From NCBI GenBank assembly GCA_017467815.1, contig JAFUKI010000077.1, positions 4,797 through 68,796 of the forward strand: DNA of 64,000 bases, written 5' to 3'. Below, one piece after another: positions 38,662-56,794 of the stretch. The position numbers were made by a program, and so were the translations under genes. The stretch's first letter is position 1. Every line of letters starts with the position of its first letter. Under the pieces are notes generated by a model. That model saw only the letters and a list, made by a program, of their open reading frames with translations, was not told where the DNA came from and searched no databases. This DNA comes from Clostridia bacterium. GTDB taxonomy: Bacteria; Bacillota; Clostridia; Oscillospirales; CAG-272.

Positions 38662-38676
38662 AACCGTAACCCCCTC

Positions 38677-41432: not shown

Positions 41433-41443
41433 AAAAATACCCC

Positions 41444-42016
41444 TTACGCCTCACCGTTCAGTATGCTGATTTCCTCTTTGGTGAGTTCCCGTTCCACCAG
41501 AGGCTGCATCGCGTGATGAACAGGGTTTTCGCTTTCGTAATTTTCCGTAATCTGCATGAAGCAGTACAGCGCCGTATCTTCGCTGACGGTTACATTGTCA
41601 AACACCAGCCGGCGGTACCGGTAAATCCCCTTTTCGTAGGAATCCACGGAAGTGGGAGAAACCCGGTCATTGCCGTTTTCGTCTCCCAGAGTGTAGGAAA
41701 ATTCCGTGCCTTCCGGAAGATCCGCATAGGTGTACAGACTCTTGTTGTAACGGATCGTGATCTGTACCTGACTGATCTCAGGGAAATACACAAACCCGTA
41801 CACGGAGTAATAGCCATCCTCAGCAATTTCCGCCGCAGGATCCTCGGTGGTGATGACGGTCAGCGCACCGCTGTCATAAGCCTGCCGGAGTGCATCACCG
41901 GGGACAATATCCGTCATAACACTGCGGTCAGCGGATACACAGCAGCGCAGGATGATCAGCACGCACAGAATGAGTACAATAACCGTAACGGTGGTGGATA
42001 TAATTTTTTTGAACAT
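41444..42016 (-). CDS. Hypothetical membrane-anchored protein
   Basis: Probable start is MFKKIISTTVTVIVLILCVLIIL (single N-terminal TM). The track start at 42094 adds an AT-rich extension. Confidence 0.55.
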   Translation of the reverse strand: MFKKIISTTVTVIVLILCVLIILRCCVSADRSVMTDIVPGDALRQAYDSGALTVITTEDPAAEIAEDGYYSVYGFVYFPEISQVQITIRYNKSLYTYADLPEGTEFSYTLGDENGNDRVSPTSVDSYEKGIYRYRRLVFDNVTVSEDTALYCFMQITENYESENPVHHAMQPLVERELTKEEISILNGEA

Positions 42017-42101
42017 AATCAGACTCCAGTCGGTAAAATACCGATATACACATAAATATACATATATTGTATCATGTAAAAATGAATAATTCAAGATAAG
42101 T

Positions 42102-43314: not shown

Positions 43315-44400
43315 TTATCCCACGATCGCAAGGGGGGATGCCGTATGGCTGCCGATATGCACCGCAGATACAAGCCGTATGCCGTCCGCCGTACCGATGT
43401 ATATGTTGGACTTCACCACGGACAGAGCATCGGTGGTGTACCAGCTGGAAGAAGCACCGTTTTCTCCATTGGTGCGCAGTCGGTACCATACAGAATTCGC
43501 ACCTGCCGGAACTGTGTCGGGATACTGCAGGGCTGTGCCGGTGTACAGAGTGATGAAATCCGTACCGTTGACGGAACGCTCCAGGGTATAGCTGACTACG
43601 GGAACCAGATCGCTCTGCACAGCTTCCCAGGATATATTAACTTTGCTTCCCGCAAGGAGCATTCCCGCAGAGAGGGCGGAGGGAGCAGTGGGACGGGAAG
43701 CACTTTGACCAATGGTCTGCACCGGTGTCTCGATTTGGGTAATGGAAACATATTGGGAATAGGAATTTGACCACTCCGCCTCGTCATAGGTGCAGTACTG
43801 CAGAACCATGTACCACTCGTACCCGAGAACATCCCCCAGCGTGCAGGTACATTCCGTTTCTCTGGATGCAGAGAGTAGAACGGTCCCCGTAAATTCCGTT
43901 TCCCCCGGCGCACGCATATAAAGGGTCAGTTTGTTCACCGCCCCGAAATGTCCTTCATCCAGCTCGGACTGGGTGACCGTCAGCGTGTTGACATGATCGG
44001 CGTACAGTTCCGGTGTAAAGGAGATGTACGGCGGAATGTCACAGTTTGAGAAATACTGGAGAAAATAGGCGGCGGAAGAGCCGGATGCCTGGAAGGTGTT
44101 CTGCACACCGGTTTTGGATTCCAAACGTACCCTCTGGGATGCATCGGGCTGATAGGGAATCATGCATACCATGGTCTCCCATCCTTCCCGCGACTCAAAC
44201 TGGTAGGTTTCGCTGTTGTAGGAACACTGGAGTCTTTCACCGGGATCCCCGACGGACGGATCATCGTATTCCGAAATCACACACAGGTACTCCCCCCAGC
44301 GCAGTACGGCATAGTTCAGATAATTGCCGTTAAGAGCATATTTCTGACTGGCTGAGTAACCCAGACAGTGCCGCTCACCGTTTGTATAGTCTAAAATCAT
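43315..44400 (-). CDS. Phage tail fibre / host-recognition protein with an FN3-like C-terminal domain
   Basis: 361 aa, last gene of the tail module. The C-terminal ..VNISWEAV..VVSYTLERSVNGTDFITLYTG.. segment is FN3-like. Confidence 0.5.
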   Translation of the reverse strand: MILDYTNGERHCLGYSASQKYALNGNYLNYAVLRWGEYLCVISEYDDPSVGDPGERLQCSYNSETYQFESREGWETMVCMIPYQPDASQRVRLESKTGVQNTFQASGSSAAYFLQYFSNCDIPPYISFTPELYADHVNTLTVTQSELDEGHFGAVNKLTLYMRAPGETEFTGTVLLSASRETECTCTLGDVLGYEWYMVLQYCTYDEAEWSNSYSQYVSITQIETPVQTIGQSASRPTAPSALSAGMLLAGSKVNISWEAVQSDLVPVVSYTLERSVNGTDFITLYTGTALQYPDTVPAGANSVWYRLRTNGENGASSSWYTTDALSVVKSNIYIGTADGIRLVSAVHIGSHTASPLAIVG

Positions 44401-44415
44401 GGATATCCCCCCTTA

Positions 44416-45129
44416 TTATTCGGAAATCAGCAGGAAAATTTCCCCTTCCGGAAGGGAATCGGGCAGGGTGTAGCCATAGCGGATGTTGCGTACCGCAGAA
44501 GCACCGGTACTGTCGCTTGCCGCCTGCAGTATCCCAGTCATCACACCGCCGGATTTCGGCAGCAGCGCTTCCGCTGTCAGTCCCCCTACCGCACCGCTGT
44601 TTTTCGCATAGGCGACATTGTCCAGACTGTCCCCCGCACCGGTAACAGGACCGCAGACCGTTTCGTCCGAGCGTCTGTCGTTGATCATATCCGCCGTCAC
44701 GATACCGCTGTTCGCCGGAACGGTAACCTCCGCCAGCAGCAGATCCCATACCTCATCATTGCGCATGGGAAGTCCCGCAGCATCTTCCGCAGCTTCCAGG
44801 GTGAAATAGCCGGATGTACGGTGCAGGCGGAGACAGATGCCGTAGGTGTGACCGGATGCAGCCGGCAGAGTGACCGTTTCCTTCAGCCATGCCATATGCC
44901 CGAAGATCCAGGCGCATCCGGGGGATACGGACAGGGTGAGCCCTTCCCCGGGGATAACGGCAAAACTGCCGTCCGCCGGTCTGATAACGCCGTCCGCATA
45001 GAAACAGCGCATCATCTGTGCGAAAAACGCAGCATCCACCGCTTTGTTGCCGCGGGGGAATCCGTCCACGGTTTCCACAATAGAAGTGGAGTCAAACATT
45101 CCTCCGTCAATTTGAATGGTCGTATTCAT
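44416..45129 (-). CDS. Phage tail fibre / baseplate upper-protein-like
   Basis: 237 aa, positioned after the Tal-like gene. The N-terminus resembles siphovirus BppU-type fibre anchors (from memory). Confidence 0.45.
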   Translation of the reverse strand: MNTTIQIDGGMFDSTSIVETVDGFPRGNKAVDAAFFAQMMRCFYADGVIRPADGSFAVIPGEGLTLSVSPGCAWIFGHMAWLKETVTLPAASGHTYGICLRLHRTSGYFTLEAAEDAAGLPMRNDEVWDLLLAEVTVPANSGIVTADMINDRRSDETVCGPVTGAGDSLDNVAYAKNSGAVGGLTAEALLPKSGGVMTGILQAASDSTGASAVRNIRYGYTLPDSLPEGEIFLLISE

Positions 45130-45144
45130 GGTAAAACCTCCGTT

Positions 45145-46185
45145 TTATTTGTTCAGTTTGCTTATCAGATGGCGTATGTCTGTGATTTCATCCCCGAAAT
45201 AGGGGTACAGCTGTTCCACGCCGTTTTCGTATACAATATCCAGTCCCGTCAGCTGTGTGCGGATGCTGATGCCCAGAGGATGGGACTGAATCTCACAGAC
45301 ATCCCCCAGATCGAATCCGCTGCCGTACCGGGGCTGGGCGTTTCCCTCGGCGGTGCAGTCCAGACGGATACGGGACGTGCATTCTCCCAGTACCTGCTGA
45401 CCTCTGGCGGTAAGGGCGGCAATATAGGTTTCTCTGTCGGGAAAATCCGCTTCCTTCAGATCTGCCGCCTTTTTGTGGATTTCCCGTATGTCTTCCTTCC
45501 CGGTGTTTCTTTCCACCGTAACAATCACACCGTCGCCGCCCTCCATGTATACCCGATTGCGGACATCTTCTGTTTGTTTTTCAAAGGTAAGGCTGGCGAT
45601 GTTGCCGAATTCTTCCGAAAAAATCGCCATTTCCGCCCTGCTGTCCCCGTCATAGGAACGGTCGGTGCCGGTGTGAAGGCGAAAGATGCCCCGGTCTGCC
45701 GTGTAGTCGTAGTCCACGGTGAAGGAGATGCCGTAAGGCTGCAGATTGCTGTACAACCAGTCCCCAAGAGGTTCCCAGCTGCCGGAGAAGGTGACTTCGG
45801 TATCAATCACCGGCTGATCCGCCCCGATTTCCACCGGCAGAGAGTCCAGCGTGTCCTGCAGTACCGCAAGAACCACATCGGTAACGGTACCCGAATAGGT
45901 AACATTTCCGCGAAGGAGCCGGTCGGACAGCAGACACTCCAGCATCCTGCCCCTCAGTTCGATCCCATCTTCCTTTACGGAAACATATTCGATCCTGCCG
46001 CAGTGTTTCCTGTCGCAGAGATAAACCGCCGCAGAAGCAATGGCAGCGATGGTACTGTCACATCCGGGGAAAACCACCGTAAACGTGCCGCAGGAATAAT
46101 ACCGCAGGGACCAGACAACGGATGTCATGTTGTCCAGAGGCGTGTTCAGCACCGCAAAATTTTTATCCAGAAAATATAGTTCCAT
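45145..46185 (-). CDS. Siphovirus Gp37-like / tail-associated (Tal-like) protein
   Basis: 346 aa. The N-terminus MELYFLDKNFAVL..SVVWSLRYYSCGTFTVVF is typical of the ReqiPepy6 Gp37-like family. It follows Dit. Confidence 0.6.
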   Translation of the reverse strand: MELYFLDKNFAVLNTPLDNMTSVVWSLRYYSCGTFTVVFPGCDSTIAAIASAAVYLCDRKHCGRIEYVSVKEDGIELRGRMLECLLSDRLLRGNVTYSGTVTDVVLAVLQDTLDSLPVEIGADQPVIDTEVTFSGSWEPLGDWLYSNLQPYGISFTVDYDYTADRGIFRLHTGTDRSYDGDSRAEMAIFSEEFGNIASLTFEKQTEDVRNRVYMEGGDGVIVTVERNTGKEDIREIHKKAADLKEADFPDRETYIAALTARGQQVLGECTSRIRLDCTAEGNAQPRYGSGFDLGDVCEIQSHPLGISIRTQLTGLDIVYENGVEQLYPYFGDEITDIRHLISKLNK

Positions 46186-46194
46186 ACATCCTCC

Positions 46195-47070
46195 TTACAG
46201 CCCGAAATACAGGGGCGTGCAGAACAGACGGACGGAAAGATAGTCCGAACCGCTGTCTGCGGAGACACTGATCCGGTTTTCGCCGGGGGAGAGTAAGAAG
46301 AAATCGCTGGTACGGTCAAAGAGGAATTTTCTTTCCCCGTTGAGCAGTACGTTTTTCTTCCCCGGACGGGTATCAATTTCCGCCGTATCCCCATCCTGCA
46401 GTGTGGTCAGCAGACGGATGTATTTGTCCCCGCAGGTCAGACAGGGATTTTCCACAATCCCGCCGGAAGCTGTCAGCACCGCCGTCATACCGCATTCCGC
46501 ATCCCCCGGATTGATCATGGTCACACTGTCCGCAGTACGGGTATAGCCGGTGGTCATGCCGGTGTTTTCCATAAAGTTCAGCGGGAAGGTCATCAGGGGA
46601 ACGGTTTGCCGGAAAGCACTTTCCACAGGTTCGGCACTCCGGTAGAAGGGTTCGGGGGCGATAAAGGTTAAGGTCACCTGCAGGGGAGAAAAGAATGTAT
46701 CCTTGGTGAGCAGGGGGACACCGTCGGGGATCACGGTGATCAGTCGGGATACGCCGTGCATCCGGATCTGCATTTCGATCTCAGAGAGGGGATTCATAAG
46801 CCGGATGATCCTGCGCCGTATCGCCCATTCTTCCGTATCGGAACCGGCATTCAACTCCGCGTGCATGGTCATATGTCTCTCCCCGAAACGTCTGCTGATG
46901 GGATGACCGCCGGGCAGACCTGCGTAGGGTTTGGTTTCCACCGCAAGGGGCGTGATGCCGAATCCCTCCAGTCCTTCCTCCAGTATGTGCATATCCGCAT
47001 CTTCGGAGGATGAGGCTGTCAGCGTAACATCCTTCCCGGATAAACGGATTTCGTAATATGTATTTGTCAA
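46195..47070 (-). CDS. Distal tail protein (Dit, phage tail family)
   Basis: 291 aa with a TTG start 6 nt after AAAGGAGG, immediately after the tape-measure gene. Confidence 0.65.
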   Translation of the reverse strand: MTNTYYEIRLSGKDVTLTASSSEDADMHILEEGLEGFGITPLAVETKPYAGLPGGHPISRRFGERHMTMHAELNAGSDTEEWAIRRRIIRLMNPLSEIEMQIRMHGVSRLITVIPDGVPLLTKDTFFSPLQVTLTFIAPEPFYRSAEPVESAFRQTVPLMTFPLNFMENTGMTTGYTRTADSVTMINPGDAECGMTAVLTASGGIVENPCLTCGDKYIRLLTTLQDGDTAEIDTRPGKKNVLLNGERKFLFDRTSDFFLLSPGENRISVSADSGSDYLSVRLFCTPLYFGL

Positions 47071-47082
47071 AATGTACCTCCT

Positions 47083-47865
47083 TTACACACGCAGCATGGC
47101 TTCGCTTTCCCGGCGTATGGCACGGGCGGTGGCATAGGGGGAGGTGTCGCTGTCTCTGAGATAGATGTTCTGAACAACATGACCGATACCGCTTTGGCTG
47201 TCTGCGGAACCGGACAGAGCGGTACGCTGACCTGCCTGCGCCAGAGAAGCCTGAATATAGCGGCTGCCGTCCAGAATTCCTTCGGCAATCCCTCTGGAAA
47301 GCATAACACCCACTTCCTCTTTCATCATTTTCGAGGGAGAAGCGATGTCGTATACTTTTTTGGCTGTTGTCATGGTCTGGTCGGAAACTGTGCGTATGGC
47401 TGCCGTAACCGCACCGGCAGAAGCAGTGATCCCGGCGGCAATTCCTTCACTGATGGACGAGCCGACGGAATACCAGTTCCCGTCAAAAGCGTTTCTGATC
47501 CGGTCTGCCGCGACCTGGGCAGCGTACACCAGAGCATTGATCCGTTCCGTGAATCCGGTGGTGATGCCGGCTGCTCCGTTTGCACCTGCGCCGCGCCAGT
47601 CTGCACTGCCGAATGCAAGGACAGCCCCTCCGGCGGCAGAAGCACTCTGTTCGTACACCTTTGCCGCCATCCCTTCCATAGCGGACATAACGGCGGAGAT
47701 GATAAGCAGCATACCCGTATCCACACCGGAAGAAGCAACTGCTGTCTGTACGCTTGCCCGGAGTCTGCCGGACAATGCGGCAAGCTGCGTTTCCAATGCG
47801 CCGATCTGTGCTGTAAACTGTTCTGTATCCAATTCGGCTGCGATGATTACCGATCCGTCTGCCAT
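47083..47865 (-). CDS. Tape-measure-like protein, unusually short (260 aa)
   Basis: Ala/Gly/Ser-rich helical protein in the canonical position between the chaperone genes and Dit. Confidence 0.6.
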   Translation of the reverse strand: MADGSVIIAAELDTEQFTAQIGALETQLAALSGRLRASVQTAVASSGVDTGMLLIISAVMSAMEGMAAKVYEQSASAAGGAVLAFGSADWRGAGANGAAGITTGFTERINALVYAAQVAADRIRNAFDGNWYSVGSSISEGIAAGITASAGAVTAAIRTVSDQTMTTAKKVYDIASPSKMMKEEVGVMLSRGIAEGILDGSRYIQASLAQAGQRTALSGSADSQSGIGHVVQNIYLRDSDTSPYATARAIRRESEAMLRV

Positions 47866-48443
47866 AATGATTCCTCCGTTTCTTTCTTGGATTTATGTGA
47901 ATGTCTGATGCGTACCATGGCTTTGGCACGTCTTAATTTTCTGCGCAGTTCTTCATCCTTAACCTCACTCAGATCCATACAGCGCAGTGCCGCGGTTCTC
48001 ATAAAAGCGCAGTCCGGCGGAAGGGCGGTAAGCAGGGCGAGAAACTTCCACCAGTGCAGGGTACATTCCGTCAGGTCGATACGGTATACCTGCAGAAACG
48101 CGCCGTAGATCTGATCCCCGTCCCAGACGAAATCGAATACCCCGCCTGCCGGCAGATTTTTGGAAACTGTCGGTTGTTCCGTACCTGCGCTGTCGGCGGC
48201 ATCTCCCCTGTAAAAAGCCAGAATGGCGGCAAATAATCTGTGGGGATCCACGGCTGGCAGATCATCACCGCAGTACAGCCACAGCCCCAGCTTCATCCGG
48301 GAAAGATTGTCAAGGGTGTCGTCCTTGGCAAGTTCACCGAAAAGGATCCCTGTCTGATAGTCCGTGCGGATGGGGACACACACGCCGTCAACCGTGACCG
48401 AGTAAGGCAGGGGGTGGGTCAGGACGGATGTGTGACGACTCAT
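47847..48443 (-). CDS. Phage Gp15-family protein
   Basis: 198 aa. The sequence resembles the Phage_Gp15 family (from memory). It has an ATGA overlap with the upstream gene. Confidence 0.55.
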   Translation of the reverse strand: MSRHTSVLTHPLPYSVTVDGVCVPIRTDYQTGILFGELAKDDTLDNLSRMKLGLWLYCGDDLPAVDPHRLFAAILAFYRGDAADSAGTEQPTVSKNLPAGGVFDFVWDGDQIYGAFLQVYRIDLTECTLHWWKFLALLTALPPDCAFMRTAALRCMDLSEVKDEELRRKLRRAKAMVRIRHSHKSKKETEESLWQTDR

Positions 48444-48832
48444 GCGCCGGCTCCGTCCATACCCACGGGCGTTCTGCTGAGATGAATGGCAAGGGCACGT
48501 TCACGGAAACGCTGTTCCGCTTCCATACGGATGTCCACCATCGCCTGCATCTGGGCTTCCACAAAGGTGACGAAGGATACGAAAGCCCTGGTATGACTTT
48601 CCGCACTTTTCATCAGTCCGCAGATCTCCCCGGCGGATTCTTCGTCAAAGAGAATATTGAAAAAACGGCGGATATCATTGCACTGTGCGGCGATCTTCTG
48701 GGCAGGAGAAACATCCCCTTCCGCCGGTTTCTGCTCCATACTGAGCAGTGCTTCGGTCAGCCGGTACATACAGCCTTCCTCACTGACATCGAACCAGTAA
48801 TCCGTGTCATTGTAATTCCAGTTTTTGTTCAT
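48440..48832 (-). CDS. Putative tail assembly chaperone
   Basis: ATG at 48832 follows AGAAAGGA (MNKNWNYNDTDYWF..). The track start at 48934 runs into repeat copy 5. Confidence 0.5.
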   Translation of the reverse strand: MNKNWNYNDTDYWFDVSEEGCMYRLTEALLSMEQKPAEGDVSPAQKIAAQCNDIRRFFNILFDEESAGEICGLMKSAESHTRAFVSFVTFVEAQMQAMVDIRMEAEQRFRERALAIHLSRTPVGMDGAGA

Positions 48833-48863
48833 AGATAGTCCTTTCTGAGTGTTGTTGCATTTA

Positions 48864-48948
48864 GCAGGGGGATGGAGAAAAACTTTTTGAAAAAAGTCTT
48901 TCTCCATCCCCCTGCACCCCCTTCCTCTTTTCAAAAAACTTTGAAAAA
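48864..48948 (+). repeat. Dispersed hairpin repeat, copy 5 (inside the tail module, antisense to the genes)
   Basis: GCAGGGGGATGGAGAAAAACTTTTTGAAAAAAGTCTTTCTCCATCCCCCTGC plus a TTTTCAAAAAACTTTGAAAAA tail. Confidence 0.9.
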
Positions 48949-48965
48949 GGTTACTGTATAAAGTT

Positions 48966-49172
48966 TTATGAAACGGGGGAGGCTTTGCGATTCTGAATGT
49001 GTGTTTCCCATTTTTCCAGCCACAGGAAGATTTTCGTCAGGAGGGATTTCAGGAGCTTGCACAGCTGCAGGAGAAATTCCATCCAGTTCATGATTTTTCT
49101 GACTGTGGGGTTGGAATACTGGGGATCATTGGTCTGTTCGGGGGTGAAGCCGGTATCTGTCTGTTCCGTCAT
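48966..49172 (-). CDS. Small ORF after the major tail gene (68 aa, unknown)
   Basis: ATG lies 3 nt after the major tail stop. The ORF ends at the edge of repeat copy 5, so it may be a truncated remnant. Confidence 0.35.
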   Translation of the reverse strand: MTEQTDTGFTPEQTNDPQYSNPTVRKIMNWMEFLLQLCKLLKSLLTKIFLWLEKWETHIQNRKASPVS

Positions 49173-49175
49173 GGC

Positions 49176-49667
49176 TTATACCCCTTCTGTGAATACGGCG
49201 GTGGAGAGAACGAATGTGCCGGATACGCCGTCGGATACGGATTTCAGGGTTCCGGTGTACAGAAGTGTATCCGTACCGGAGCCGCATTCATCGGGAATAA
49301 CGGAATAGACACGGCGGCGTGCGCGGCAGATGCCGGATGTGCCCGTTTCGTCGAACAGATCCACGGTGCAGATCTCCACCTGTGCTTCTTCGCCGGTACG
49401 TTCATAATCGGTGATGCTGCGCAGTTTTTCGATCACCGGATTGCCCTTGTATACTTCAAATTCGTATTCAATGGTGGGGGCATAGCCGGTTACATCGGTG
49501 CGCTTGGAGGCTTCGTGGATGTATCGTCTCTGATAACTTACCGCATTTTTGGATTCGGTAAAGTCCGTGAACCCTTCCCCGATCAGACTCCATTCCGGCG
49601 CATCGGCGGTTGCGATATTCATATAATGCCGTCTGGCGGCACGATTGACAATGGATGTTGCTGCCAT
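49176..49667 (-). CDS. Major tail protein
   Basis: 163 aa with an AAAGGA SD. Position and size fit siphovirus major tail proteins. Confidence 0.65.
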   Translation of the reverse strand: MAATSIVNRAARRHYMNIATADAPEWSLIGEGFTDFTESKNAVSYQRRYIHEASKRTDVTGYAPTIEYEFEVYKGNPVIEKLRSITDYERTGEEAQVEICTVDLFDETGTSGICRARRRVYSVIPDECGSGTDTLLYTGTLKSVSDGVSGTFVLSTAVFTEGV

Positions 49668-49691
49668 AATGATTCCTTTCTGTGTGTGGTT

Positions 49692-50099
49692 TTATTGAGA
49701 TACATGGTATTCCAGTACAAAAGCCGCCCTGTATTCTTCCGTTCCGTCCTGCCATACCGATGCTTTTGCCGGAAGGGTGGTCTGGCGGATTTTGGTGAAT
49801 ACCTTTCCGTTTTCATCCGGGGGCAGATGGGCGGAGAGCCAGTCGGTCAGGCTTTCAAACTGCCCCAGAACCGCTAATTTCCCAGCAGGGGATGCGCCGT
49901 CCGTGTACAGGGATACCCCAAAAGGGAACTGTCCGGTGTAGGAACCGTCGATGTATCTTTTGATCTGGCGGCTGGCGGAGAGGGCAGTGATCACCCCGCC
50001 CGGAACCTTTCCTTCCGTTTCCGGGAGAAAATCCCACGGACGGTCCTCCCAGGTGTTGAGTAAAGTGCATAAAGCGTTGAGGATGCTTTTTTCTTCCAT
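49692..50099 (-). CDS. Tail-completion / minor capsid-family protein
   Basis: 135 aa with an AAAGGAG SD, in the head-tail joining block. Confidence 0.5.
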   Translation of the reverse strand: MEEKSILNALCTLLNTWEDRPWDFLPETEGKVPGGVITALSASRQIKRYIDGSYTGQFPFGVSLYTDGASPAGKLAVLGQFESLTDWLSAHLPPDENGKVFTKIRQTTLPAKASVWQDGTEEYRAAFVLEYHVSQ

Positions 50100-50103
50100 A
50101 TCG

Positions 50104-50442
50104 TTAAAACTCCTTTCCCGTCAGTGCTTTTGCCGCTGTCTGCCGCCACAATTCCAGATCCACAGCTTTGGCGGCTTCAAACCATCCTGCCTGGGCAAGG
50201 GGGTGTTTTTCTCTGGAAAAAGGTCTTTTGGCATAGTAGCATTTCTGTGCATGATCGGCAGTCCATGCTACCCCTTCCTCCGTAATGCTGCCGGATGCGG
50301 CAAGAGCGCCTGTGCGGTAGGGGACGTAGGGCGTGCTGGAATCCAGAACTGCCTGACGCATGGCTTGTGCGGCGGCTTTTGCACGGCTGGTGATGGCGTT
50401 CATAACCGAACCGGTGCTGAACTGCATGGTAAAATGAACCAT
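50104..50442 (-). CDS. Head-tail joining protein (HK97 gp10-like / minor capsid family)
   Basis: ATG at 50442 follows AGGAGG (MVHFTMQFSTGS..). Confidence 0.5.
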   Translation of the reverse strand: MVHFTMQFSTGSVMNAITSRAKAAAQAMRQAVLDSSTPYVPYRTGALAASGSITEEGVAWTADHAQKCYYAKRPFSREKHPLAQAGWFEAAKAVDLELWRQTAAKALTGKEF

Positions 50443-50450
50443 AGTACCTC

Positions 50451-50795
50451 CTATGCCATGCATTCCAGCCGATAATGCTCCACTCTGTCACTGCCGGTCA
50501 GATAGGGCGTGATTTTCATGACCGTCCAGCCTGTCTTATCATCGGGACCGAAGTACAGCTTGTCTCCGGGGGCAAATCCGACGGCGGAAAAAGGAAGACT
50601 GCCGCCCGACTGATCGGTAAGTCTGCTGAAACGGGGGAAGAAATACACTACGGCACTGCATTTGTGATGTCCCTTTTCCGTCATGGCGGCGCTGCGGAAG
50701 ACCACGGTTTTATGGGCTGTATATTCTTTGTATACCGGTATAAAGCGGCTGTCGTAGCCCAGAAGATGCCTGAGTACAATCTGATCTGTACGCAT
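50451..50795 (-). CDS. Head closure / minor capsid-family protein
   Basis: 114 aa with a GAGGAGG SD. Confidence 0.5.
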   Translation of the reverse strand: MRTDQIVLRHLLGYDSRFIPVYKEYTAHKTVVFRSAAMTEKGHHKCSAVVYFFPRFSRLTDQSGGSLPFSAVGFAPGDKLYFGPDDKTGWTVMKITPYLTGSDRVEHYRLECMA

Positions 50796-50804
50796 ATTTC
50801 CTCC

Positions 50805-51143
50805 TCAAATCCACTGATTCAGCAGACCGGCGTGGGACAGGGTGAGTATGGCATAGGGACATACCTTCACACCGTACACGGAAAGCGCCGGCATACGGTA
50901 TTCCACCCGGTAATCCCCCAGACTTTCGGCGGCAAGACCTGCACTGTCCCCGTTTCCGGCGATCTGATCCGTCTGCAGACAGACAGCACAGCGGATGGCG
51001 TCTTCCTTTTCCGGATAATCCGCCGGGTGACGGGGCAGCAGAAGATGTGCGATCACCGCTTCCGCCGCCTTGGAGTGCTGTAAGAATTCTTCTTCCGTCA
51101 GCCCACCGCCGTATTCATTTTTGTAATACGTATAATCCGTCAC
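50805..51143 (-). CDS. Head-tail connector-like protein
   Basis: GTG at 51143 lies 7 nt after AAAGGAG (VTDYTYYKNEYGGGLTEEEF..). The track ORF extends into the capsid gene. Confidence 0.5.
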   Translation of the reverse strand: MTDYTYYKNEYGGGLTEEEFLQHSKAAEAVIAHLLLPRHPADYPEKEDAIRCAVCLQTDQIAGNGDSAGLAAESLGDYRVEYRMPALSVYGVKVCPYAILTLSHAGLLNQWI

Positions 51144-51156
51144 GGCAAATCTCCTT

Positions 51157-52278
51157 TTAACCCATGTAGCGTACAGCCAGCTCAGGATAGAGGGGCATGA
51201 AGCTGTAGAGCACATCCATGGAAAGAATGTCCTTCTTACGGTTGATGTCATAACCGCGTACCACACGGAGGGAGATACCGTTGTGGGTGGTTACATAGGA
51301 TTCCACGCCGGCAGGTGCAGCCAGAGGACGGGAAACGAAGGCGAAGGCATTGGGATGGAAAATCAGGTTGGCTTCGTGGGTAGGCAGGACCTCAACGGTA
51401 CCGTTCAGAATGCCGCTTACGGAAGTGGGCATGATCGGGAAGGTAACGGAGGTGCTTGTAAATTCCACATTGTCGGCGGCGATGACATAAACCACGGAAC
51501 CGTCCTTCTTGGTGATCTTGAGAATATCGCCGAGGTTGATGGTTTTGTCGGGGGCGGAGGAACAGGTCAGGGTCAGGGAAGTACCGGCAAGGGTGGTGAC
51601 GATGATGTTGGCGGAAGAACCGGCGAGGGTACCGGAAACATGGGTGGGTACAGCCTGGCTCATGTAGTTTTCCAGACCGAATACCTTACCGATGGAACCG
51701 GTGCGCAGAGCCTTGGAGGAACCGCACTGATCCGCATTGATAAGCGCCGGAATCTGCTTCAGCTGGCAGGCGGTACGGGGACTCCAGAGAGCGCATCGGT
51801 TGTCGGTGGGAACCCCTGCCTTGTCCAGCGCATAAACGGCTTCGGCGAAATCGCTCAGATCGGACGGAGGTGTACCGGGCGTACCGACCACGGTAGAGGC
51901 AGTGCAGTAAAGCATCATACCGTCTCTGTTGATTTTCTCTGCCAGAGCAGCGGCGGCAGGTTCCAGAAACAGTCTGGTCATGTCATCAAAGCTGCAGGCA
52001 CTTTCGAGGGCGGAAACTTCCACATCCACAGTGGCGATGTTGGCAAGGGGTACCTCTACGGTTTCCTCAACGATGGACTGGGGGCTGATGGTGTCGCCGT
52101 TGAAGAAATCATTGGCGGTCAGCTTTACGGGACGGCGGATCACAACGGTATCCCCCTTCTTGGCGCTCTGGTGGTCCCCCAGATCCTTGTAGACCAGATT
52201 GGGGAATACCAGATTGTCCATCAGTCTGGGCAGGGTTTCTCTTGCGATCTGCTTGGCGGAATATAAACTGTTGTACAT
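51157..52278 (-). CDS. Major capsid protein (P22 gp5-like coat family)
   Basis: 373 aa following the scaffold gene. The N-terminal region is typical of P22-type coat proteins (from memory). Confidence 0.75.
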   Translation of the reverse strand: MYNSLYSAKQIARETLPRLMDNLVFPNLVYKDLGDHQSAKKGDTVVIRRPVKLTANDFFNGDTISPQSIVEETVEVPLANIATVDVEVSALESACSFDDMTRLFLEPAAAALAEKINRDGMMLYCTASTVVGTPGTPPSDLSDFAEAVYALDKAGVPTDNRCALWSPRTACQLKQIPALINADQCGSSKALRTGSIGKVFGLENYMSQAVPTHVSGTLAGSSANIIVTTLAGTSLTLTCSSAPDKTINLGDILKITKKDGSVVYVIAADNVEFTSTSVTFPIMPTSVSGILNGTVEVLPTHEANLIFHPNAFAFVSRPLAAPAGVESYVTTHNGISLRVVRGYDINRKKDILSMDVLYSFMPLYPELAVRYMG

Positions 52279-52317
52279 AAATAATCTCCTTTGTCAGTCA
52301 AGTGTATTGTGTTTGTC

Positions 52318-52740
52318 TCAGAAACGGCGGACGAAGCGGTAGTACTCCGCATCGGTCATGCTTTCCGGGTCGGCAAAGGGAGTGCCGTGGGAAGTGCCGG
52401 TGGCGATCTTCTCCTTATCCCCGGTGTTGTGGAATAAATAGGGATCGCTGACACGGAGCTTGTCCAGCTGTTCGTTCAGACCGTGAATACCGTCGTTGTC
52501 CATGGTAATGGCGGACATATCCAGTACCTTGGCGGCAAGCGACGGATTTTTGGCGCCCATTCTGGTCAGGGCGTACTTGGTTTCGTGTTCGATCTGCATT
52601 TTCTGCAGGTCGGCGGTGTGGTTTTTCTCCATGAGACGGATCTGTTCCTGCAAAGCTGCCACTTCGGGGGAAACATTTTCCTCTGCTTCGGATACCGCAC
52701 CGGTTTCTTCGGCGGCGCCTGTCATGTTGTTTTCTTCCAT
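52318..52740 (-). CDS. Scaffolding protein
   Basis: 140-aa acidic helical protein between portal and capsid. ATG at 52740 lies 10 nt after AAAGGAG. Confidence 0.65.
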   Translation of the reverse strand: MEENNMTGAAEETGAVSEAEENVSPEVAALQEQIRLMEKNHTADLQKMQIEHETKYALTRMGAKNPSLAAKVLDMSAITMDNDGIHGLNEQLDKLRVSDPYLFHNTGDKEKIATGTSHGTPFADPESMTDAEYYRFVRRF

Positions 52741-52778
52741 GTGCAAAAATCTCCTTTCTGATCGGCATATTATCCGGC

Positions 52779-54152
52779 TCAGATACCGTTATGCCATTTT
52801 CTTTTGAATTCTTCCGCGGACAGAAGTCCGGCTTCCACTTCGCGCAGATCCCGGCTTCTTTCGGATTCCGTATCCACGAAATAGCTGTCGTCATACCGTA
52901 CAGCCACAGGGGTCGTGCTGTCCATGGGCAGGCGGAGTATGTATTCCCCCAGCCACAGAACCGGTCTTACGATGCCGTACAGAAATGCGGTCATGTTCTG
53001 CTGATGCTTGCTCAGATTCTGCCGCATATCCTGCCGTTCTCCCATGTACTGGGTGGCGGTAAGCTGTGCTTTGCCCTGTACGCCGGAGAACAGATAATGC
53101 CTTGTCCCCAGACCGCACCGGAAGGACAGATAATCCAGCTGTGCCTGCAGGGCATCACGGTTTTCCTCGGAACGGAGACTGGGATTGTGTTCGGTGATCA
53201 TGGGCGTTTCCGCCAGATCCCCGTCGCCGATGGTTACAAACAGCTGCTGCGCCACATCGTCCGGGGTGTACAGATTCCCTTCGCTGTCCCGGTTGACCAA
53301 GGACTGGTTGATGAATACCTTCTTGCCGCCCAGTTTCAGGTCACGGCAGAAATTGTTGAATGCCAGATCCACACCCTTCAGACAGTCGATGGCATCGGCA
53401 AAAATGGACTGTCCCAGACCGCATCCCTCGTCCACGGCGTTGTGGATGTTGGGGGTCAGAATGCTGAAGAAGGGGTACGGACAGCCGGTGCGGATCTCTC
53501 TCGGCGGCATTTTGGGGTATTTGACCTCCGTCAGCCTGCCGCCGTTTTCTTCCGCGTAATAATGGTTGCGGATCACATACCCGTCGTCTTCTCTGGTGTG
53601 GATCTCCACATAGAGTGCCTTTTCTCCGCGGGTACGGATTTCGGAAATGAATGCCGCCTCCGTGATCCTGCCTTCCTCCACGGAAATGGGCAGAATATGT
53701 CCCGCATCCACAAAGTCGAAGGAGAGGGAGAGGGGCATCTCAGCCGCTTCGGTCAGATTGCCGCACCCGACGGGCAGACCGTGGACACGCAGCAGACAGG
53801 CACCGCTTCCCAGAGCAAAAGCCTTTTCCACCATATGGTTGCATCTCCGCCAGAAATCGGTCTGGGAGAGAAGGATCTGCAGCCATTTTTCCGCGGCAGG
53901 ATCGGCAACCTGAAGATAGGTCTTGTCGTTGAACAGCAGGGAAGCCCAGTCTTCGCATACCTTTTTCGCCATGTGCAGACGGTACATTTCCCGCTTGACC
54001 GGACGTCCGAAGGAAGCGTTTTCCCAGTATTCGTGGAAGGTATGCTCCTTCCCCTGCCACCAGCTCTGCCAGATGTCGATCATGCGGTAGATCCCCGTGC
54101 CCGCTGTGCAGCCGTACTGCTGACCGATCAGGTCTAAAATTTCGTTTCGCAT
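52779..54152 (-). CDS. Portal protein
   Basis: 457 aa, immediately after the large terminase. Confidence 0.8.
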   Translation of the reverse strand: MRNEILDLIGQQYGCTAGTGIYRMIDIWQSWWQGKEHTFHEYWENASFGRPVKREMYRLHMAKKVCEDWASLLFNDKTYLQVADPAAEKWLQILLSQTDFWRRCNHMVEKAFALGSGACLLRVHGLPVGCGNLTEAAEMPLSLSFDFVDAGHILPISVEEGRITEAAFISEIRTRGEKALYVEIHTREDDGYVIRNHYYAEENGGRLTEVKYPKMPPREIRTGCPYPFFSILTPNIHNAVDEGCGLGQSIFADAIDCLKGVDLAFNNFCRDLKLGGKKVFINQSLVNRDSEGNLYTPDDVAQQLFVTIGDGDLAETPMITEHNPSLRSEENRDALQAQLDYLSFRCGLGTRHYLFSGVQGKAQLTATQYMGERQDMRQNLSKHQQNMTAFLYGIVRPVLWLGEYILRLPMDSTTPVAVRYDDSYFVDTESERSRDLREVEAGLLSAEEFKRKWHNGI

Positions 54153-54178
54153 AAATTGTTCCTTTCTGGTAAAATTGA

Positions 54179-55492
54179 TCAGACTTTCCCCATATACCGT
54201 TCAATGGCATATTCCATAGCATCCAGAATGTCTATGTCCGAGGTAAAGTCGTCTTTCCGCCTGTCCGCGCCTTCCGTGTCCTCCCAGACCGCCTCCGCAA
54301 GTCCGGCAGCCAGCTTCGGACAATCCGGAGTGAGATGAAAACGACCTGCACTCATCAGTCCGTTCACGAAAGCGATACGATCGGTGATGGGACGCTTGGC
54401 ACAGTCGGATACAATGAGTCCCTCACTCCCGGGGATGGACCGGCGGAGACCGTTGATCAGATACTGTGCTTCGCTGTCGCAGAAAACATAACGGATGGGC
54501 AGTCCGGGGTATTTCTCATGCAATGCGGCGAGAAAGGCGAGGAATTCTCTGTTGATGCGCCCCGGATCAATATCCCCTTTGTTCCCCTGTACTGCCTTTT
54601 CACCAATGGCGATCACACCGCCGGAGAGGGGAAATCCCACAGCGGCAAACACGGTTTTGGAACGGTTTCCGCCGAAGTCCACGCCGATGTTGCAGAATTT
54701 CATGGGCGGCAGATCCGCTGTCTGCAGCAGGAATTTCTCCGGTGCATCGGCAAAACTGCGGTAGATCAGCCCTTCAGCCGCACAGCGCTGTCCCAGTATA
54801 TCCCGACGGTACCATACGGATGCTTTGTCGTACTGCGCCTCGATTTCCGCAAGACGCTCTTTCGTGATCACGGGATTGTCCCGGATGGTGAAATGGGCGT
54901 AATTGCAGAAACCGGGGGAAGTGTCGGCAGTGTAGGGATCAATGTACTGCCGGTAAATGAGGGCGGAGGGGGAAGTGGGGTTCAGATCCCAGAAGATCTT
55001 CCGTCGGCGGGCGGCAAGGGTTCGGTTGAAGGCCTCTTGAATAAAGCTGTCGTGGTGGTGGTTGATCTCCGTTGCGAGCCACATTCCATACGAGTTTCCG
55101 CGGATCCGCTTGTAGGCATCCGCATTTTTTCCGCCGGCGAACAGAACCACCTTCTCACCGTTTTTCGTCTGAATACGCAGACATTCGTTATCCTTATACC
55201 GACCCCAGGTACACCTGCCTCTGAAAATCCTTTCCAGACCCAGACCGTTGCAGTCCCCCAGATTGAGTTTGGCATTGCCGATGGTGGAACCGGATGCCAG
55301 ATGAATCCGATCCGGCGTTTCCTCCAGTGCGGCGGCAAAGACAAATACATTGTCCACCGTCTTCCCGGCACGTACCGCCCCTTCGGCAATATTTATGGTG
55401 CAGTCCAGAGCACGCCGCATATACCTGCGATGCTTTTCCCCGAAACAATACCGGGGATCTTCATATTGCCCGGACTTTTCCGCATCCGTCAT
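54179..55492 (-). CDS. Terminase large subunit (PBSX family)
   Basis: 437 aa with a Walker A-like AVRAGKT and a family-typical sequence including the C-terminal nuclease region. Confidence 0.9.
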   Translation of the reverse strand: MTDAEKSGQYEDPRYCFGEKHRRYMRRALDCTINIAEGAVRAGKTVDNVFVFAAALEETPDRIHLASGSTIGNAKLNLGDCNGLGLERIFRGRCTWGRYKDNECLRIQTKNGEKVVLFAGGKNADAYKRIRGNSYGMWLATEINHHHDSFIQEAFNRTLAARRRKIFWDLNPTSPSALIYRQYIDPYTADTSPGFCNYAHFTIRDNPVITKERLAEIEAQYDKASVWYRRDILGQRCAAEGLIYRSFADAPEKFLLQTADLPPMKFCNIGVDFGGNRSKTVFAAVGFPLSGGVIAIGEKAVQGNKGDIDPGRINREFLAFLAALHEKYPGLPIRYVFCDSEAQYLINGLRRSIPGSEGLIVSDCAKRPITDRIAFVNGLMSAGRFHLTPDCPKLAAGLAEAVWEDTEGADRRKDDFTSDIDILDAMEYAIERYMGKV

Positions 55493-55527
55493 ATTTCCGC
55501 TTCCTTTCCGTTTGCTTCATTCTCCCA

Positions 55528-55908
55528 TCATTCTTCCTGACGGAATACCTCCTCCCGCAGTGCCGCAATTTCCGTACTGGTTTCCGCCGCCGCAAATCCC
55601 TGAGCCGGATTCAGACGTACATCCTTCCACAGCTCAAAATACAGCTTGATTGCCGGAATGCTGCCGTCGCGTGCCAGAGAGAGCAGATGCTCCCAGACTT
55701 CCGCGGCGTACATCCCGGCATATTCTCTCGCCAGCTGCACCACAGCCGAACCGAATGCCGCATCCCTGAGCCATGCCAACATATCCGCTTCGGGCACATC
55801 CGTACGGGACAGGGCTTTCTCGATCTGTTCCCCGGCTGTCTGTCCTCTGAAGCTGTTTTCGATGACCGCATTGGCAGTGTCAATTTGTTTTTCCGTCGTA
55901 TCGCTCAC
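55528..55908 (-). CDS. Putative terminase small subunit / HTH packaging protein
   Basis: 126 aa directly upstream of terL. The start is uncertain because GTG at 55908 abuts the AAAGGAGG SD. Confidence 0.45.
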   Translation of the reverse strand: MSDTTEKQIDTANAVIENSFRGQTAGEQIEKALSRTDVPEADMLAWLRDAAFGSAVVQLAREYAGMYAAEVWEHLLSLARDGSIPAIKLYFELWKDVRLNPAQGFAAAETSTEIAALREEVFRQEE

Positions 55909-55924
55909 CTCCTTTCGTGCCTAT

Positions 55925-55953
55925 AGTATAACATCCCGAACATTTGTTTGTCA
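55925..55953 (-). promoter_or_regulatory. Candidate late-operon promoter
   Basis: Minus strand reads TGACAA (55953-55948), 17 nt spacer, TGtTATACT (-10 at 55930-55925). Confidence 0.5.
55938..55949. promoter_or_regulatory. LexA-like box (GAAC-N4-GTTT variant) in the late-promoter spacer
   Basis: + strand reads GAACATTTGTTT, one mismatch from GAAC-N4-GTTC. Confidence 0.4.
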
Positions 55954-56092
55954 TCCCACAAAAATACCGGCAGCGTGCAGGAAAAAGTAGCAGAAAAGTA
56001 TCAAAAAAGTGGTATCCCCCTCAAAAAATGCATAAAAAAAGACCGCCTGACATACAAGCAGCCTAAATAAATCCATATTCCTATTCCATATA

Positions 56093-56158
56093 CCCCTTTT
56101 GAAGTTTTTTGAAAAGAGGGAGGGGGGAGAATCGCTTCGCAAATCTCCCTCCCCCTTC
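56093..56158 (-). repeat. Dispersed hairpin repeat, copy 6 (degenerate)
   Basis: CCCTTTTGAAGTTTTTTGAAAAG module plus a GAGGGAGGGGGGAGA..TCTCCCTCCCCC hairpin with a divergent loop. It starts 5 nt after the regulator stop. Confidence 0.7.
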
Positions 56159-56162
56159 TAAA

Positions 56163-56552
56163 TCAAACCGTCCGACCAAATAAAGCCAAAGTAAACCGGC
56201 TGTATGCTCTGCGTCGGATTCTGTAGAAGGAACTGCGTTCTACGTGCAGTTCTTCGCATATATCCTCAATGCTCGCACGGGAGGATTTGGTGGCATAGGC
56301 AGTGAGAATGGCTTTCTCATCCGGTTCCAGGGTAGCCAGAGCAAACTCCAGTGCCCGTACCTTTTTTGCCAGCCGACGGCGGTTGTCCTCACATTCCGGC
56401 GATCCGTCATCCCACATATTCTGCAGTGCATTTCTCAGATATGGCAGTTCCTGCAGCAGAGAAATCGCCTGTTTCTGTAATGTCAACGCCTGATCCGTTT
56501 TTCTTGTTTTCATCGTTTCTTTGGTTGCGTTTGTCTTAATGGTAGTGCTCAT
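56163..56552 (-). CDS. ArpU/RinA-like phage late transcriptional activator (sigma-70 region-4-like HTH)
   Basis: 129 aa. The C-terminal ..SIEDICEELHVERSSFYRIRRRAYSRFTLAL is typical of ArpU/RinA/DUF1492-type regulators. It is the first gene of the cluster. Confidence 0.6.
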   Translation of the reverse strand: MSTTIKTNATKETMKTRKTDQALTLQKQAISLLQELPYLRNALQNMWDDGSPECEDNRRRLAKKVRALEFALATLEPDEKAILTAYATKSSRASIEDICEELHVERSSFYRIRRRAYSRFTLALFGRTV

Positions 56553-56593
56553 CTGCCATCATCCTTTCTATGGTATTGTTTGTACGTTGAAAA

Positions 56594-56607
56594 AGAACAT
56601 CCGTTCT
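56594..56607. promoter_or_regulatory. LexA (DinR/Cheo) box 1
   Basis: AGAACATCCGTTCT, 9 nt downstream of the -10 and over the expected transcription start. Confidence 0.75.
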
Positions 56608-56616
56608 GCTTTGATT

Positions 56617-56645
56617 AGTATACCACAAGGGGATGCGTTTGTCAA
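56617..56645 (-). promoter_or_regulatory. Sigma-A promoter of the regulator gene
   Basis: Minus strand reads TTGACA (56645-56640), 17 nt spacer, TATACT (56622-56617). Confidence 0.75.
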
Positions 56646-56653
56646 TACCAAAA

Positions 56654-56667
56654 AGAACATATGTTCT
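56654..56667. promoter_or_regulatory. LexA (DinR/Cheo) box 2
   Basis: AGAACATATGTTCT, a perfect palindrome 8 nt upstream of the -35. Confidence 0.8.
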
Positions 56668-56765: not shown

Positions 56766-56794
56766 TTGCAATCCTACAGTGATTATGTTATAAT
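56766..56794 (+). promoter_or_regulatory. Sigma-A promoter of kdgK
   Basis: TTGCAA (56766-56771), 17 nt spacer, TGtTATAAT (-10 at 56789-56794). Confidence 0.7.

Follow-up and report, generated by a model that had tools for sequence, protein, structure and literature searches.

A phage head-tail module lodged in an Oscillospirales chromosome: a candidate gene transfer agent-like element with predicted LexA operators

What can a cluster of phage head and tail genes be for when it lies between host genes of a bacterial chromosome and carries none of the genes with which a phage integrates, replicates or lyses its host? This question is raised by a 13-kb module of 19 genes in a Clostridia bacterium of the Oscillospirales (GTDB lineage CAG-272; GenBank assembly GCA_017467815.1). 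The DNA analysed is a 64-kb stretch of contig JAFUKI010000077.1 (positions 4,797 to 68,796), here called the window; all positions below are in window numbering, and L followed by a number is the label of a related locus. We conclude that this is probably a domesticated siphovirus morphogenesis and packaging module, a 'viriform' similar to the gene transfer agents (GTAs), that is fixed in the chromosome and vertically inherited.

The 19 open reading frames (ORFs) are intact, lie co-directionally on the minus strand and span positions 43315-56552. The gaps between them range from -19 to +39 nt, save two longer ones of 133 and 254 nt. Gene identities come from profile searches of the module ORFs against PHROGs, Pfam and NCBIfam, and these bore out nearly all of the gene labels that a preliminary description had given from the sequence alone; the number, direction and intactness of the ORFs are likewise as described there. 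In the order of transcription the genes are as follows (lengths in amino acids, aa; dN/dS, the ratio of nonsynonymous to synonymous divergence, from the comparison described below):

56163-56552 (-): regulator, 129 aa, ArpU/RinA/DUF1492-like, predicted sigma-region-4-like late-gene activator (phrog_36, E = 2.6e-11)
55528-55908 (-): small terminase-like protein with a helix-turn-helix (HTH) domain (TerS), 126 aa (HTH_Tnp_1_2, E = 4e-7; weak match to the terS family phrog_24579; dN/dS 0.09-0.14)
54179-55492 (-): large terminase TerL, probably of the PBSX family, 437 aa (phrog_2, E = 2e-27)
52779-54152 (-): portal protein, 457 aa (phrog_533, E = 2e-81)
52318-52746 (-): short scaffolding protein, ~140 aa, covering only positions 66-162 of the 170-position Pfam model
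51157-52278 (-): P22-type major capsid (coat) protein, 373 aa (phrog_283, E = 2e-74; PF11651, E = 1e-37)
50805-51143 (-): head-tail adaptor, 112 aa (phrog_541, E = 9e-16)
50451-50795 (-): conserved 114-aa protein, a connector by position, also 114 aa in L001 and L004 (dN/dS 0.22-0.28)
50104-50442 (-): Minor_capsid_2 or head-closure-type protein, 112 aa (PF11114, phrog_556)
49692-50099 (-): tail-completion protein, 135 aa (phrog_3266, E = 7e-6)
49176-49667 (-): major tail (tube) protein, 163 aa (phrog_3099, E = 2e-48; weak match to NF047353, tube_lmo2291)
48966-49172 (-): 68-aa ORF of uncertain status, poorly conserved (50-53% identity to L001 and L004)
48440-48832 (-): tail assembly chaperone-like protein, DUF6673, ~130 aa, its stop codon overlapping the start of the Gp15 gene (ATGA)
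47847-48443 (-): Phage_Gp15 protein, 198 aa (PF06854, E = 2e-29)
47083-47865 (-): miniature tape measure protein, 260 aa (dN/dS 0.13-0.18)
46195-47070 (-): distal tail protein Dit, 291 aa (phrog_33, PF22768)
45145-46185 (-): Sipho_Gp37 or Tal-like tail tip protein, 346 aa (PF14594, E = 5e-33; phrog_538)
44416-45129 (-): receptor-binding protein (RBP)-like baseplate protein, 237 aa, by predicted fold
43315-44400 (-): distal protein with an FN3/Hoc-like immunoglobulin domain (residues 235-332), 361 aa (phrog_10993, E = 4e-16)

The DUF1492 and TIGR01637 matches of the regulator are weak and fall under the curated cut-offs; its dN/dS against L004 is 0.10. The top NCBIfam match of TerL, TIGR01547 (E = 3e-22, 79.6 bits), likewise lies under the 105-bit cut-off of that family, and the protein is 50% identical to TerL of the Clostridioides difficile siphophages phiCD38-2 and phiCD111, which is annotated as PBSX family. 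By sequence, the coat matches the 'Gene 5 protein' coat chains 7sp4 and 5l35 in the PDB. No sheath, baseplate-wedge or baseplate-spike family was matched in the profile searches of the module, and the siphovirus set of Dit, Tal and Gp15 is present.

The two last genes had been described as fibre proteins. For 44416-45129 this label gives way to an RBP-like protein. Sequence searches of the PDB with the 237-aa and 361-aa proteins gave nothing significant, so that structure prediction was needed for the former. Its AlphaFold2 model is confident at residues ~50-160 (predicted local distance difference test scores of 85-95), and Foldseek comparison of this core finds a resemblance to the RBPs of the lactococcal phages p2 and 1358 (shoulder domain) and to a cyanophage tail fibre (E = 6e-4 to 1e-3). 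The model also matches many predicted proteins in BFVD that are named 'Receptor Binding Protein' (E = 2.5e-12), and nearly all of the 68 sequence homologues found are 228-242 aa long. Judged by this predicted RBP-like fold, the adsorption device is retained.

As had been stated previously, integrase, repressor, replication and lysis genes are all missing among the module ORFs in the PHROGs, Pfam and NCBIfam searches. Nor did the wider set of window ORFs searched (the module, its flanks, an aromatic-amino-acid operon, ABC transporters and several unknown ORFs) yield an integrase, lysis or replication gene. No tRNA gene and no Rfam match occur in the window, and there is no repeat resembling attachment (att) sites between the module edges, the longest word common to the two being 9 nt long compared with 13 in shuffled sequences; on this point, too, the preliminary description was correct. 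The edges adjoin the gene of an MnmL/YtqA tRNA-modification radical-SAM enzyme on one side and a PfkB kinase and GH106 pair on the other, and these flanking host genes have promoters of their own at 43280-43253 (-) and 56766-56794 (+), where they had been placed earlier. The module thus lacks the features of an intact temperate prophage, namely, integrase or recombinase, repressor, replication genes, holin or endolysin, and att sites, and, by its gene content, the element cannot integrate, excise or replicate alone. It holds what is expected of a GTA or other viriform: phage structural and packaging genes without genes for autonomous replication, integration or excision.

Two relatives indicate how long the module has been where it is. 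The coats of L001 and L004 are 71% and 77% identical to the window coat, respectively, and both loci have the same 19 genes with lengths preserved, including a 261-aa tape measure. The order at the site is PfkB-GH106, module, MnmL radical-SAM; the radical-SAM edge is kept in L001 and L004, and the PfkB side is seen in L001 only. Residence inside mobile prophages at variable sites was not seen, and relatives share the chromosomal site or neighbourhood. We computed dN/dS and dS pairwise by the Nei-Gojobori method for the window versus L001 and L004, for all genes except the 68-aa ORF, for which they were not computable; because dS is high, the dN/dS values are approximate. They range from 0.06 to 0.30 for 18 of the 19 module genes, with dS mostly between 0.54 and 1.7 and one outlier at 2.3, and from 0.06 to 0.21 for the flanking host genes, with dS of 0.88-1.16. 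The most conserved module gene is that of the tube protein (89-92% identity to L001 and L004, dN/dS 0.06-0.08), and the fastest-evolving one encodes the 361-aa distal protein (55-56% identity, dN/dS 0.26-0.27). The dS values of the module are like those of the flanking host genes, so the module has been diverging for as long as its neighbours and under comparable constraint. It is a long resident and not a recent remnant, as the preliminary description had argued for this structure-only cluster.

Codon usage tells the same. The correlation of relative synonymous codon usage (RSCU) between the module and the host is r = 0.972, compared with r = 0.966 between one half of the host genes and the other, so that the module is indistinguishable from the host in this respect and the host codon habit noticed before is real; the G+C content of the module is 54.7%, slightly above 50.5%. 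The long open antisense frames that had been noticed over the structural genes are also real: ORFs of 401-452 aa lie antisense over tal, portal and terL (44821-46179 (+), 52791-54137 (+) and 54335-55540 (+), respectively). Comparable antisense ORFs of 400-450 codons lie over host genes as well (947-2308 (-) and 14153-15511 (+)). These frames are an artefact of codon bias and no evidence of genes, and they mislead gene calling by longest ORF.

Beyond these two loci, databases contain 1505 homologues of the coat, those listed being almost without exception unnamed proteins from metagenome-assembled genomes (MAGs). Among GTDB species representatives there are 108 coat relatives, none of them more than 57% identical to the window coat; an identical protein is present in an NCBI MAG labelled 'Clostridia bacterium' and in a metagenome scaffold from ENA. 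About 50 of these species have a coat at least 50% identical and share the whole gene order; they come from rumen, horse, mouse and human-gut MAGs and, by their NCBI labels, are assigned to Oscillospiraceae, Ruminococcaceae, Ruminococcus sp., Eubacteriales and Clostridia. Gene calls in these family loci were ORFs anchored on tblastn matches, longest-ORF calling having produced antisense artefacts in GC-rich loci. Many family loci adjoin PHP, EamA and DUF1934 genes, which in the window lie 4-6 kb from the module, and others adjoin a Polysacc_synt gene, which the window has as well. In 12 taxa, terL, portal and coat diverge in step with the PHP and DUF1934 genes next to them (Mantel r = 0.81, p = 0.004). 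When 121 ORFs flanking the module within 10 kb at 16 loci were assigned to Pfam families, the recurrent ones were DUF1934, PHP, beta-lactamase, ABC transporters, MatE, EamA and UvrA, and no integrase, recombinase, holin or lysin family recurred among them. Vertical inheritance under purifying selection, the other mark of a GTA or viriform, is thus found here in the shared site in L001 and L004, the dS values equal to those of the flanks, the Mantel correlation and the RSCU.

The contrast with true phages points in the same direction. No IMG/VR record whose coat reaches 52% identity is longer than 14.2 kb, the length of the module alone, and records of 28-61 kb occur only among coat matches of at most 50% identity. 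At these low-identity loci the coat is shared, some also share terL, portal, tube or Gp15, and a few have a whole module with a short tape measure. True siphophages with a coat 45-50% identical have homologous coat, portal, tube and Gp15. Among deposited phages there is no record with a coat more than 38% identical, and the module accordingly has no cultured phage relative. One phage relative was examined closely, L164 (IMG/VR UViG_3300014535_000004, a 37.8-kb record). It shares with the module the order tube, chaperone, Gp15, tape measure, Dit, Tal, and differs from it in carrying RusA, a C5 methylase, a gp3-type TerS and a 614-aa Phage_min_cap2 protein. The L164 scaffold is 248 aa long and covers Pfam model positions 1-167, whereas that of the module, at ~140 aa, reaches only from 66 to 162; the L164 tape measure has 1267 aa with a PhageMin_Tail domain, compared with 260 aa in the module.

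The tape measure of the module matches only the C-terminal parts of tape measures of more than 1000 aa (phrog_1204, phrog_1686) and keeps only an N-terminal motif and the SPS-motif region. In the family loci that have a homologue, which belong to dozens of species, it is usually ~236-289 aa long, so the short tape measure is, by this comparison of sequences, a selected trait rather than an accident. Tape measures set tail length at 0.15 nm per residue, and the 260-aa protein therefore predicts a tail of ~40 nm.

If the element is host-owned, what would switch it on? The upstream regions of the regulator gene and of terS contain the following sites:

56655-56666: predicted LexA (Cheo) box 1, GAACATATGTTC, ~10 nt upstream of the -35 of the regulator promoter
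56617-56645 (-): regulator promoter, TTGACA, 17 nt, TG-extended TATACT, with 11/12 consensus positions, conserved in L001 and L004
56595-56606: predicted LexA box 2, GAACGGATGTTC (coding strand), immediately 3' of the -10, at about +5 to +16
55981-56010 (-): putative binding sites of the activator, ACTTTT(T/C)T in three direct copies that precede the late promoter at an 11-nt period
55925-55954 (-): late promoter before terS, ATGACA, 18 nt, TG-extended TATACT
55938-55949: predicted LexA-like box, AAACAAATGTTC, within the late-promoter spacer

The LexA operator consensus for Bacillus and Clostridia is GAACN4GTT[C/T] (PMC4234289). Perfect GAACN4GTTC sites occur four times in the window, compared with 1.2 expected by chance, and two of the four flank the regulator promoter. 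When the spacer upstream of the regulator gene is aligned between the window, L001 and L004, the conserved blocks are the two boxes, the -35, the extended -10 and the Shine-Dalgarno sequence, and the rest is unalignable. The late promoter, its AAACAAATGTTC box and the preceding repeats are all conserved in the same two loci, with two copies of the repeat block CTTTTCTGC kept in both; distant relatives have TGGAAAA repeats at the position that matches the 11-nt-period repeats.

This arrangement extends across the family. In the 1.5 kb upstream of terL at 40 loci there are 32 perfect boxes in 60 kb, versus 14 in 632 kb elsewhere, a 24-fold enrichment (p = 7e-24). We defined a composite promoter as GACA, the box and the extended -10 TGnTAnAMT, where the box may overlap the last A of GACA, and searched 46 non-redundant loci. 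It occurs 36 times, each time upstream of terS or the regulator gene, and 33 of the 46 loci have at least one; outside these upstream regions there is none in 1.5 Mb, both strands counted. An operator inside a promoter spacer is the classical geometry of repression, so direct repression of the activator gene and the late operon by LexA is the simplest reading of these sites. Host control would be exerted through the conserved predicted LexA operators on both promoters, and this putative wiring of the module by LexA-box promoters is new here.

A working scheme for the element can be drawn from its genes and sites. In undamaged cells, host LexA would sit on the two operators that flank the activator-gene promoter and on the third one in the late-promoter spacer. 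Upon DNA damage, RecA-stimulated cleavage of LexA would derepress both promoters, and the activator, probably bound to the 11-nt-period repeats upstream of the late promoter, would drive the 18-gene operon. Portal, shortened scaffold and P22-type coat would assemble into procapsids, which TerS and the putative PBSX-family TerL would fill with DNA, presumably by headful packaging. The connectors, tube, chaperones and 260-aa tape measure would build a short, non-contractile tail of ~40 nm that ends in Dit, Tal and the receptor-binding protein. The particles would be released with the help of lysis genes that are not linked to the module and lie elsewhere in the genome.

How does such an element compare with the systems already described? 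Borodovich et al. (bioRxiv 2024; Nat Commun 2026, PMC12946183) reported that host DNA is packaged in a GTA-like manner, in pieces of 4-10 kb, in Ruminococcaceae, Oscillospiraceae and Christensenellaceae of the gut, and the earlier remark that no characterised equivalent is known in genomes of this kind is therefore outdated, both by that packaging in Ruminococcaceae and Oscillospiraceae and by the FpGTA of Faecalibacterium prausnitzii, published in 2024 and 2026 (PMC12946183). That paper describes FpGTA as ~40-nm particles with ~9 kb of host DNA, podovirus-like and with an N4-gp56-family capsid, and places a second locus with baseplate, fibre and lysis genes ~125 kb away from the first (PMC12946183). 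Other taxa show the packaging without a reported gene cluster, among them CAG-115, Onthomonas (sp900545815), R. callidus, UBA11524, QANA01, UBA1829, UBA1206, HGM11616 and UMGS856, and for Gemmiger the authors say explicitly that operons homologous to FpGTA were not found (PMC12946183). In a 2026 murine transductomics preprint, a 14-kb core cluster is proposed in Coprocola and none was found in an Oscillospiraceae genus.

FpGTA resembles the module in being a phage-derived, structure-only cluster of gut Oscillospirales without replication or integration genes, and it is near-ubiquitous within its host clade. The two differ in the capsid, N4-gp56 in FpGTA as against a P22-type coat (PF11651) in the module, a comparison made on the capsid annotations. 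They differ further in that FpGTA is split over two loci, whereas the module is one locus with tube, tape measure, Dit, Tal and RBP and with no lysis genes found; the passages on FpGTA make no mention of LexA control (PMC12946183). No Faecalibacterium genome is among the 80 best GTDB coat matches. We considered homology of the module to FpGTA and rejected it on account of the N4-gp56 capsid annotated there and the lack of Faecalibacterium among those 80 matches, and the different capsid family and missing match argue that the two are independent domestications.

The RcGTA-type GTAs of Alphaproteobacteria (Rhodogtaviriformidae) are similar to the module in their ~14-kb head-tail cluster, vertical inheritance and purifying selection, and also in the short tail, small tape measure, unlinked lysis genes and host-controlled expression, on the side of the module as predicted features; the sequences are unrelated. 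RcGTA has an HK97-type capsid with a protease, unlike the module with its P22-type coat and scaffold. CtrA, GafA and quorum sensing regulate RcGTA, and the part that LexA plays there is only an indirect one, whereas in the module predicted LexA operators lie directly on the promoters. Among Gram-positive bacteria, the SOS-inducible defective phage PBSX of Bacillus subtilis packages host DNA and has a PBSX-family TerL and a sigma-like late activator, each with a probable counterpart in the module. PBSX, however, has a contractile tail, an Xre repressor of its own and linked lysis genes, none of which is found in the module, and it kills cells and transfers no DNA. For the putative circuit the nearest parallel is the Bacillus thuringiensis phage GIL01, for which the host LexA is described as serving as phage repressor (PMC6182141). 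Like the module, with its predicted boxes, GIL01 has host LexA boxes directly on promoters of a phage-derived element and no CI-type repressor; unlike the module, GIL01 replicates as a linear plasmid-prophage, and the sequences of the two are unrelated. No description of the module family was found in full-text literature searches. The module is thus a candidate for a GTA-like viriform that was domesticated independently and whose predicted circuit, with LexA acting directly, is distinctive.

Variation within the family has a bearing on the tail. Homologues of Gp15 and the tape measure, and mostly also of the tube, are missing at L016, L017, L019, L022, L026, L027, L031-L033, L051 and L087, at L007, L012 and L056, and at L044, L055 and L110. 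At these loci the distance from coat to Dit is only 1.1-2.1 kb, Dit and Tal are kept, and an RBP-like gene is present in most. These sublineages occupy at least three separate places on a neighbour-joining tree drawn without support values, and this suggests that siphovirus-like forms were reduced more than once to ones with almost no tail.

A sister clade (L070, L075, L078, L082, L083, L086 and L089) with coats 46-48% identical likewise carries a compact module, ~12 kb in size and located on long chromosomal contigs, and a tape-measure homologue that, where detected, is short (269-359 aa). Domestication may, on this account, be older or broader than the core family. A different kind of variation is seen in L009, which is 99.85% identical to L010 from 94 nt past the portal stop codon onward; upstream, it has ComM, Polysacc_synt and ribosomal genes in place of terS, terL and portal of L010. 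The junction coincides with a copy of a dispersed repeat, and L009 is either a split-locus variant or an assembly chimera.

The linkage of PHP, EamA (in some loci) and DUF1934 genes to the module extends over very divergent species (window 37112-39450; L007, L012, L024, L034, L044, L045, L050 and L056). At several loci these genes are located between a divergently placed regulator gene and terS, and they are either bystander host genes or functionally tied to the element. A uvrA gene, of nucleotide-excision repair, lies a few kb downstream of the module in L012 and L044.

Could the particles be weapons rather than vehicles? SOS-induced, DNA-filled particles might adsorb to competitors and damage them without delivering DNA, in the manner of PBSX or a bacteriocin. 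The putative SOS wiring through LexA boxes is reminiscent of both PBSX and the SOS-induced bacteriocins of Clostridia, TerL probably belongs to the PBSX family, the RBP-like protein and the fastest-evolving distal gene would suit strain-specific targeting, and for FpGTA its authors raise this alternative as well (PMC12946183). Yet the tail is by its genes non-contractile and very short, with no sheath or baseplate-spike genes, and purifying selection acts on the head, portal, terminase and scaffold genes no less strongly than on the tail genes, which is hard to explain if adsorption and killing alone mattered. Several sublineages, moreover, have apparently dropped the tail tube and kept the heads, and we regard a killing function as unlikely. 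Still more doubtful is another exaptation, such as an SOS-induced structure for anti-phage defence, a satellite helper or a means of DNA release in biofilms. Selection shows the module to be useful without indicating for what; however, a search of ten proteins against PADLOC revealed no signature of a defence system, and a full packaging motor with an adsorption apparatus would most simply make DNA-containing, cell-binding particles.

The two readings that deny the module a settled role in its host have very little left to recommend them. A once-complete prophage decaying without present function, its ORFs not yet broken, would explain why the integrase, repressor, replication and lysis modules are missing and why host hairpin repeats have invaded two intergenic spots, but all 19 ORFs are intact and unchanged in length across lineages at dS of ~0.6-1.4 with dN/dS of 0.06-0.30, the family is kept across ~50 species, and the regulatory sites are conserved as footprints; this reading is already contradicted and highly improbable. 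A still-mobile element, either a prophage with its other modules elsewhere or a capsid-forming satellite resembling the capsid-forming phage-inducible chromosomal islands (cf-PICI), might be suspected from the listing of family members as viral contigs in IMG/VR and from L009, where terS, terL and portal appear to stand apart from the rest. Both edges, however, adjoin host genes that are conserved in relatives, the module edges share no att repeat and the window has no tRNA gene, no integrase or recombinase recurs within 10 kb at the 16 loci, and IMG/VR records do not exceed 14.2 kb where the coat is 52% or more identical. The cf-PICI satellites have no tail genes and carry int, rep and alpA, whereas the module is without int and rep genes and has a full set of tail genes. 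Continued mobility is thus largely contradicted, and we give it hardly any credence.

Several points weigh against the GTA-like reading that we prefer. The TerS of the module keeps its HTH domain, unlike TerS of RcGTA and FpGTA, which are reported to be without an obvious DNA-binding domain (PMC12946183), so packaging could be directed by sequence rather than random. The coat is as long as in phages of 31-54 kb, and the head, if still T=7, could have room for all 13 kb of the module; the shortening of scaffold and tape measure is only suggestive as a sign that small random pieces of host DNA are packaged. Holin and endolysin genes are absent from the window ORFs searched, with none recurrent in the family flanks, and there are no cultured carriers among the family loci listed. 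With regard to the circuit, the third operator, AAACAAATGTTC, is one base off the consensus (AAAC for GAAC), 13 of the 46 loci have no composite promoter under the strict pattern, and a regulator other than LexA may recognise the same palindrome.

The surroundings of the module were also surveyed. A block of ribosomal-protein genes and rpoA (~4-21 kb) was identified by gene order and lengths and not by family search. Lysis genes were sought downstream of the module in three ORFs (39772-42094), which matched neither a Pfam nor an NCBIfam family; N-terminal membrane segments are present in two of the ORFs. In one of the three, a 325-aa ORF at 39772-40749 (-), a stretch of 140 residues aligns with the PADLOC model 'REase_III' (E = 1.6e-11). 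Other lysis candidates were discarded. The window has no homologue of a ~555-aa gene that comes after the module in five relatives and belongs to the conserved genes of the host, and the Amidase_2 and Peptidase_M23 genes seen close to two relatives do not recur.

A dispersed hairpin repeat of ~100 nt has full copies at 2359-2458, 21273-21372, 36693-36792 and 48867-48966, the last one within the module, and partial copies at 23611, 56096, 60862 and 61443. It is intergenic, similar to repetitive extragenic palindromic (REP) elements or to miniature inverted-repeat transposable elements (MITEs), and has no Rfam match; in each copy a G/A-rich stem is followed by TTTCAAAAAACTTTGAAAAA. The two copies that had been noticed inside the cluster are both there, one full and one partial:

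48867-48966: host dispersed hairpin repeat, full ~100-nt copy, inside the operon
56096-56157 (-): host hairpin repeat, partial copy (repeat at 56096-56121), a terminator-like hairpin 3' of the regulator gene

A second, T-tailed hairpin follows the regulator gene at 56040-56064. Another repeat, of 91 nt, has copies at 2511-2601 and 36850-36940 that are 87% identical and adjoin two copies of the hairpin repeat; together, the two repeats form a composite unit of ~250 nt.

The genes behind GTA-like packaging in gut Ruminococcaceae and Oscillospiraceae are known only for Faecalibacterium (PMC12946183). The module would add a second, unrelated and much more widely distributed candidate family, present in rumen, horse, mouse and human-gut MAGs. 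It can be searched for by its signatures: a P22-type coat, a ~260-aa tape measure, a 238-aa RBP and, in the late promoter, the LexA box within the pattern GACA-[G/A]AACN4GTT[C/T]-TGnTAnAMT. The family also offers a natural series for the reduction of a phage to a device owned by its host, in which early genes were lost, scaffold and tape measure were shortened and the tube was apparently lost repeatedly. The predicted LexA wiring implies that particle production would be switched on by DNA-damaging drugs.

A broader proposal, which we put forward tentatively as a possibility and not as the expected outcome, is that the module is the founding example of an undescribed, family-wide GTA lineage of gut and rumen Oscillospirales, independent of FpGTA, wired to the SOS response through a LexA operator in the late promoter, with sublineages that repeatedly lose tube and tape measure, and possibly the missing cluster behind the orphan packaging of 4-10 kb. 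If this is true, the module family could explain the orphan GTA-like packaging in CAG-115, Onthomonas, Ruminococcus_C callidus and Gemmiger, and antibiotics that damage DNA would set off generalised gene transfer among abundant anaerobes of the gut.

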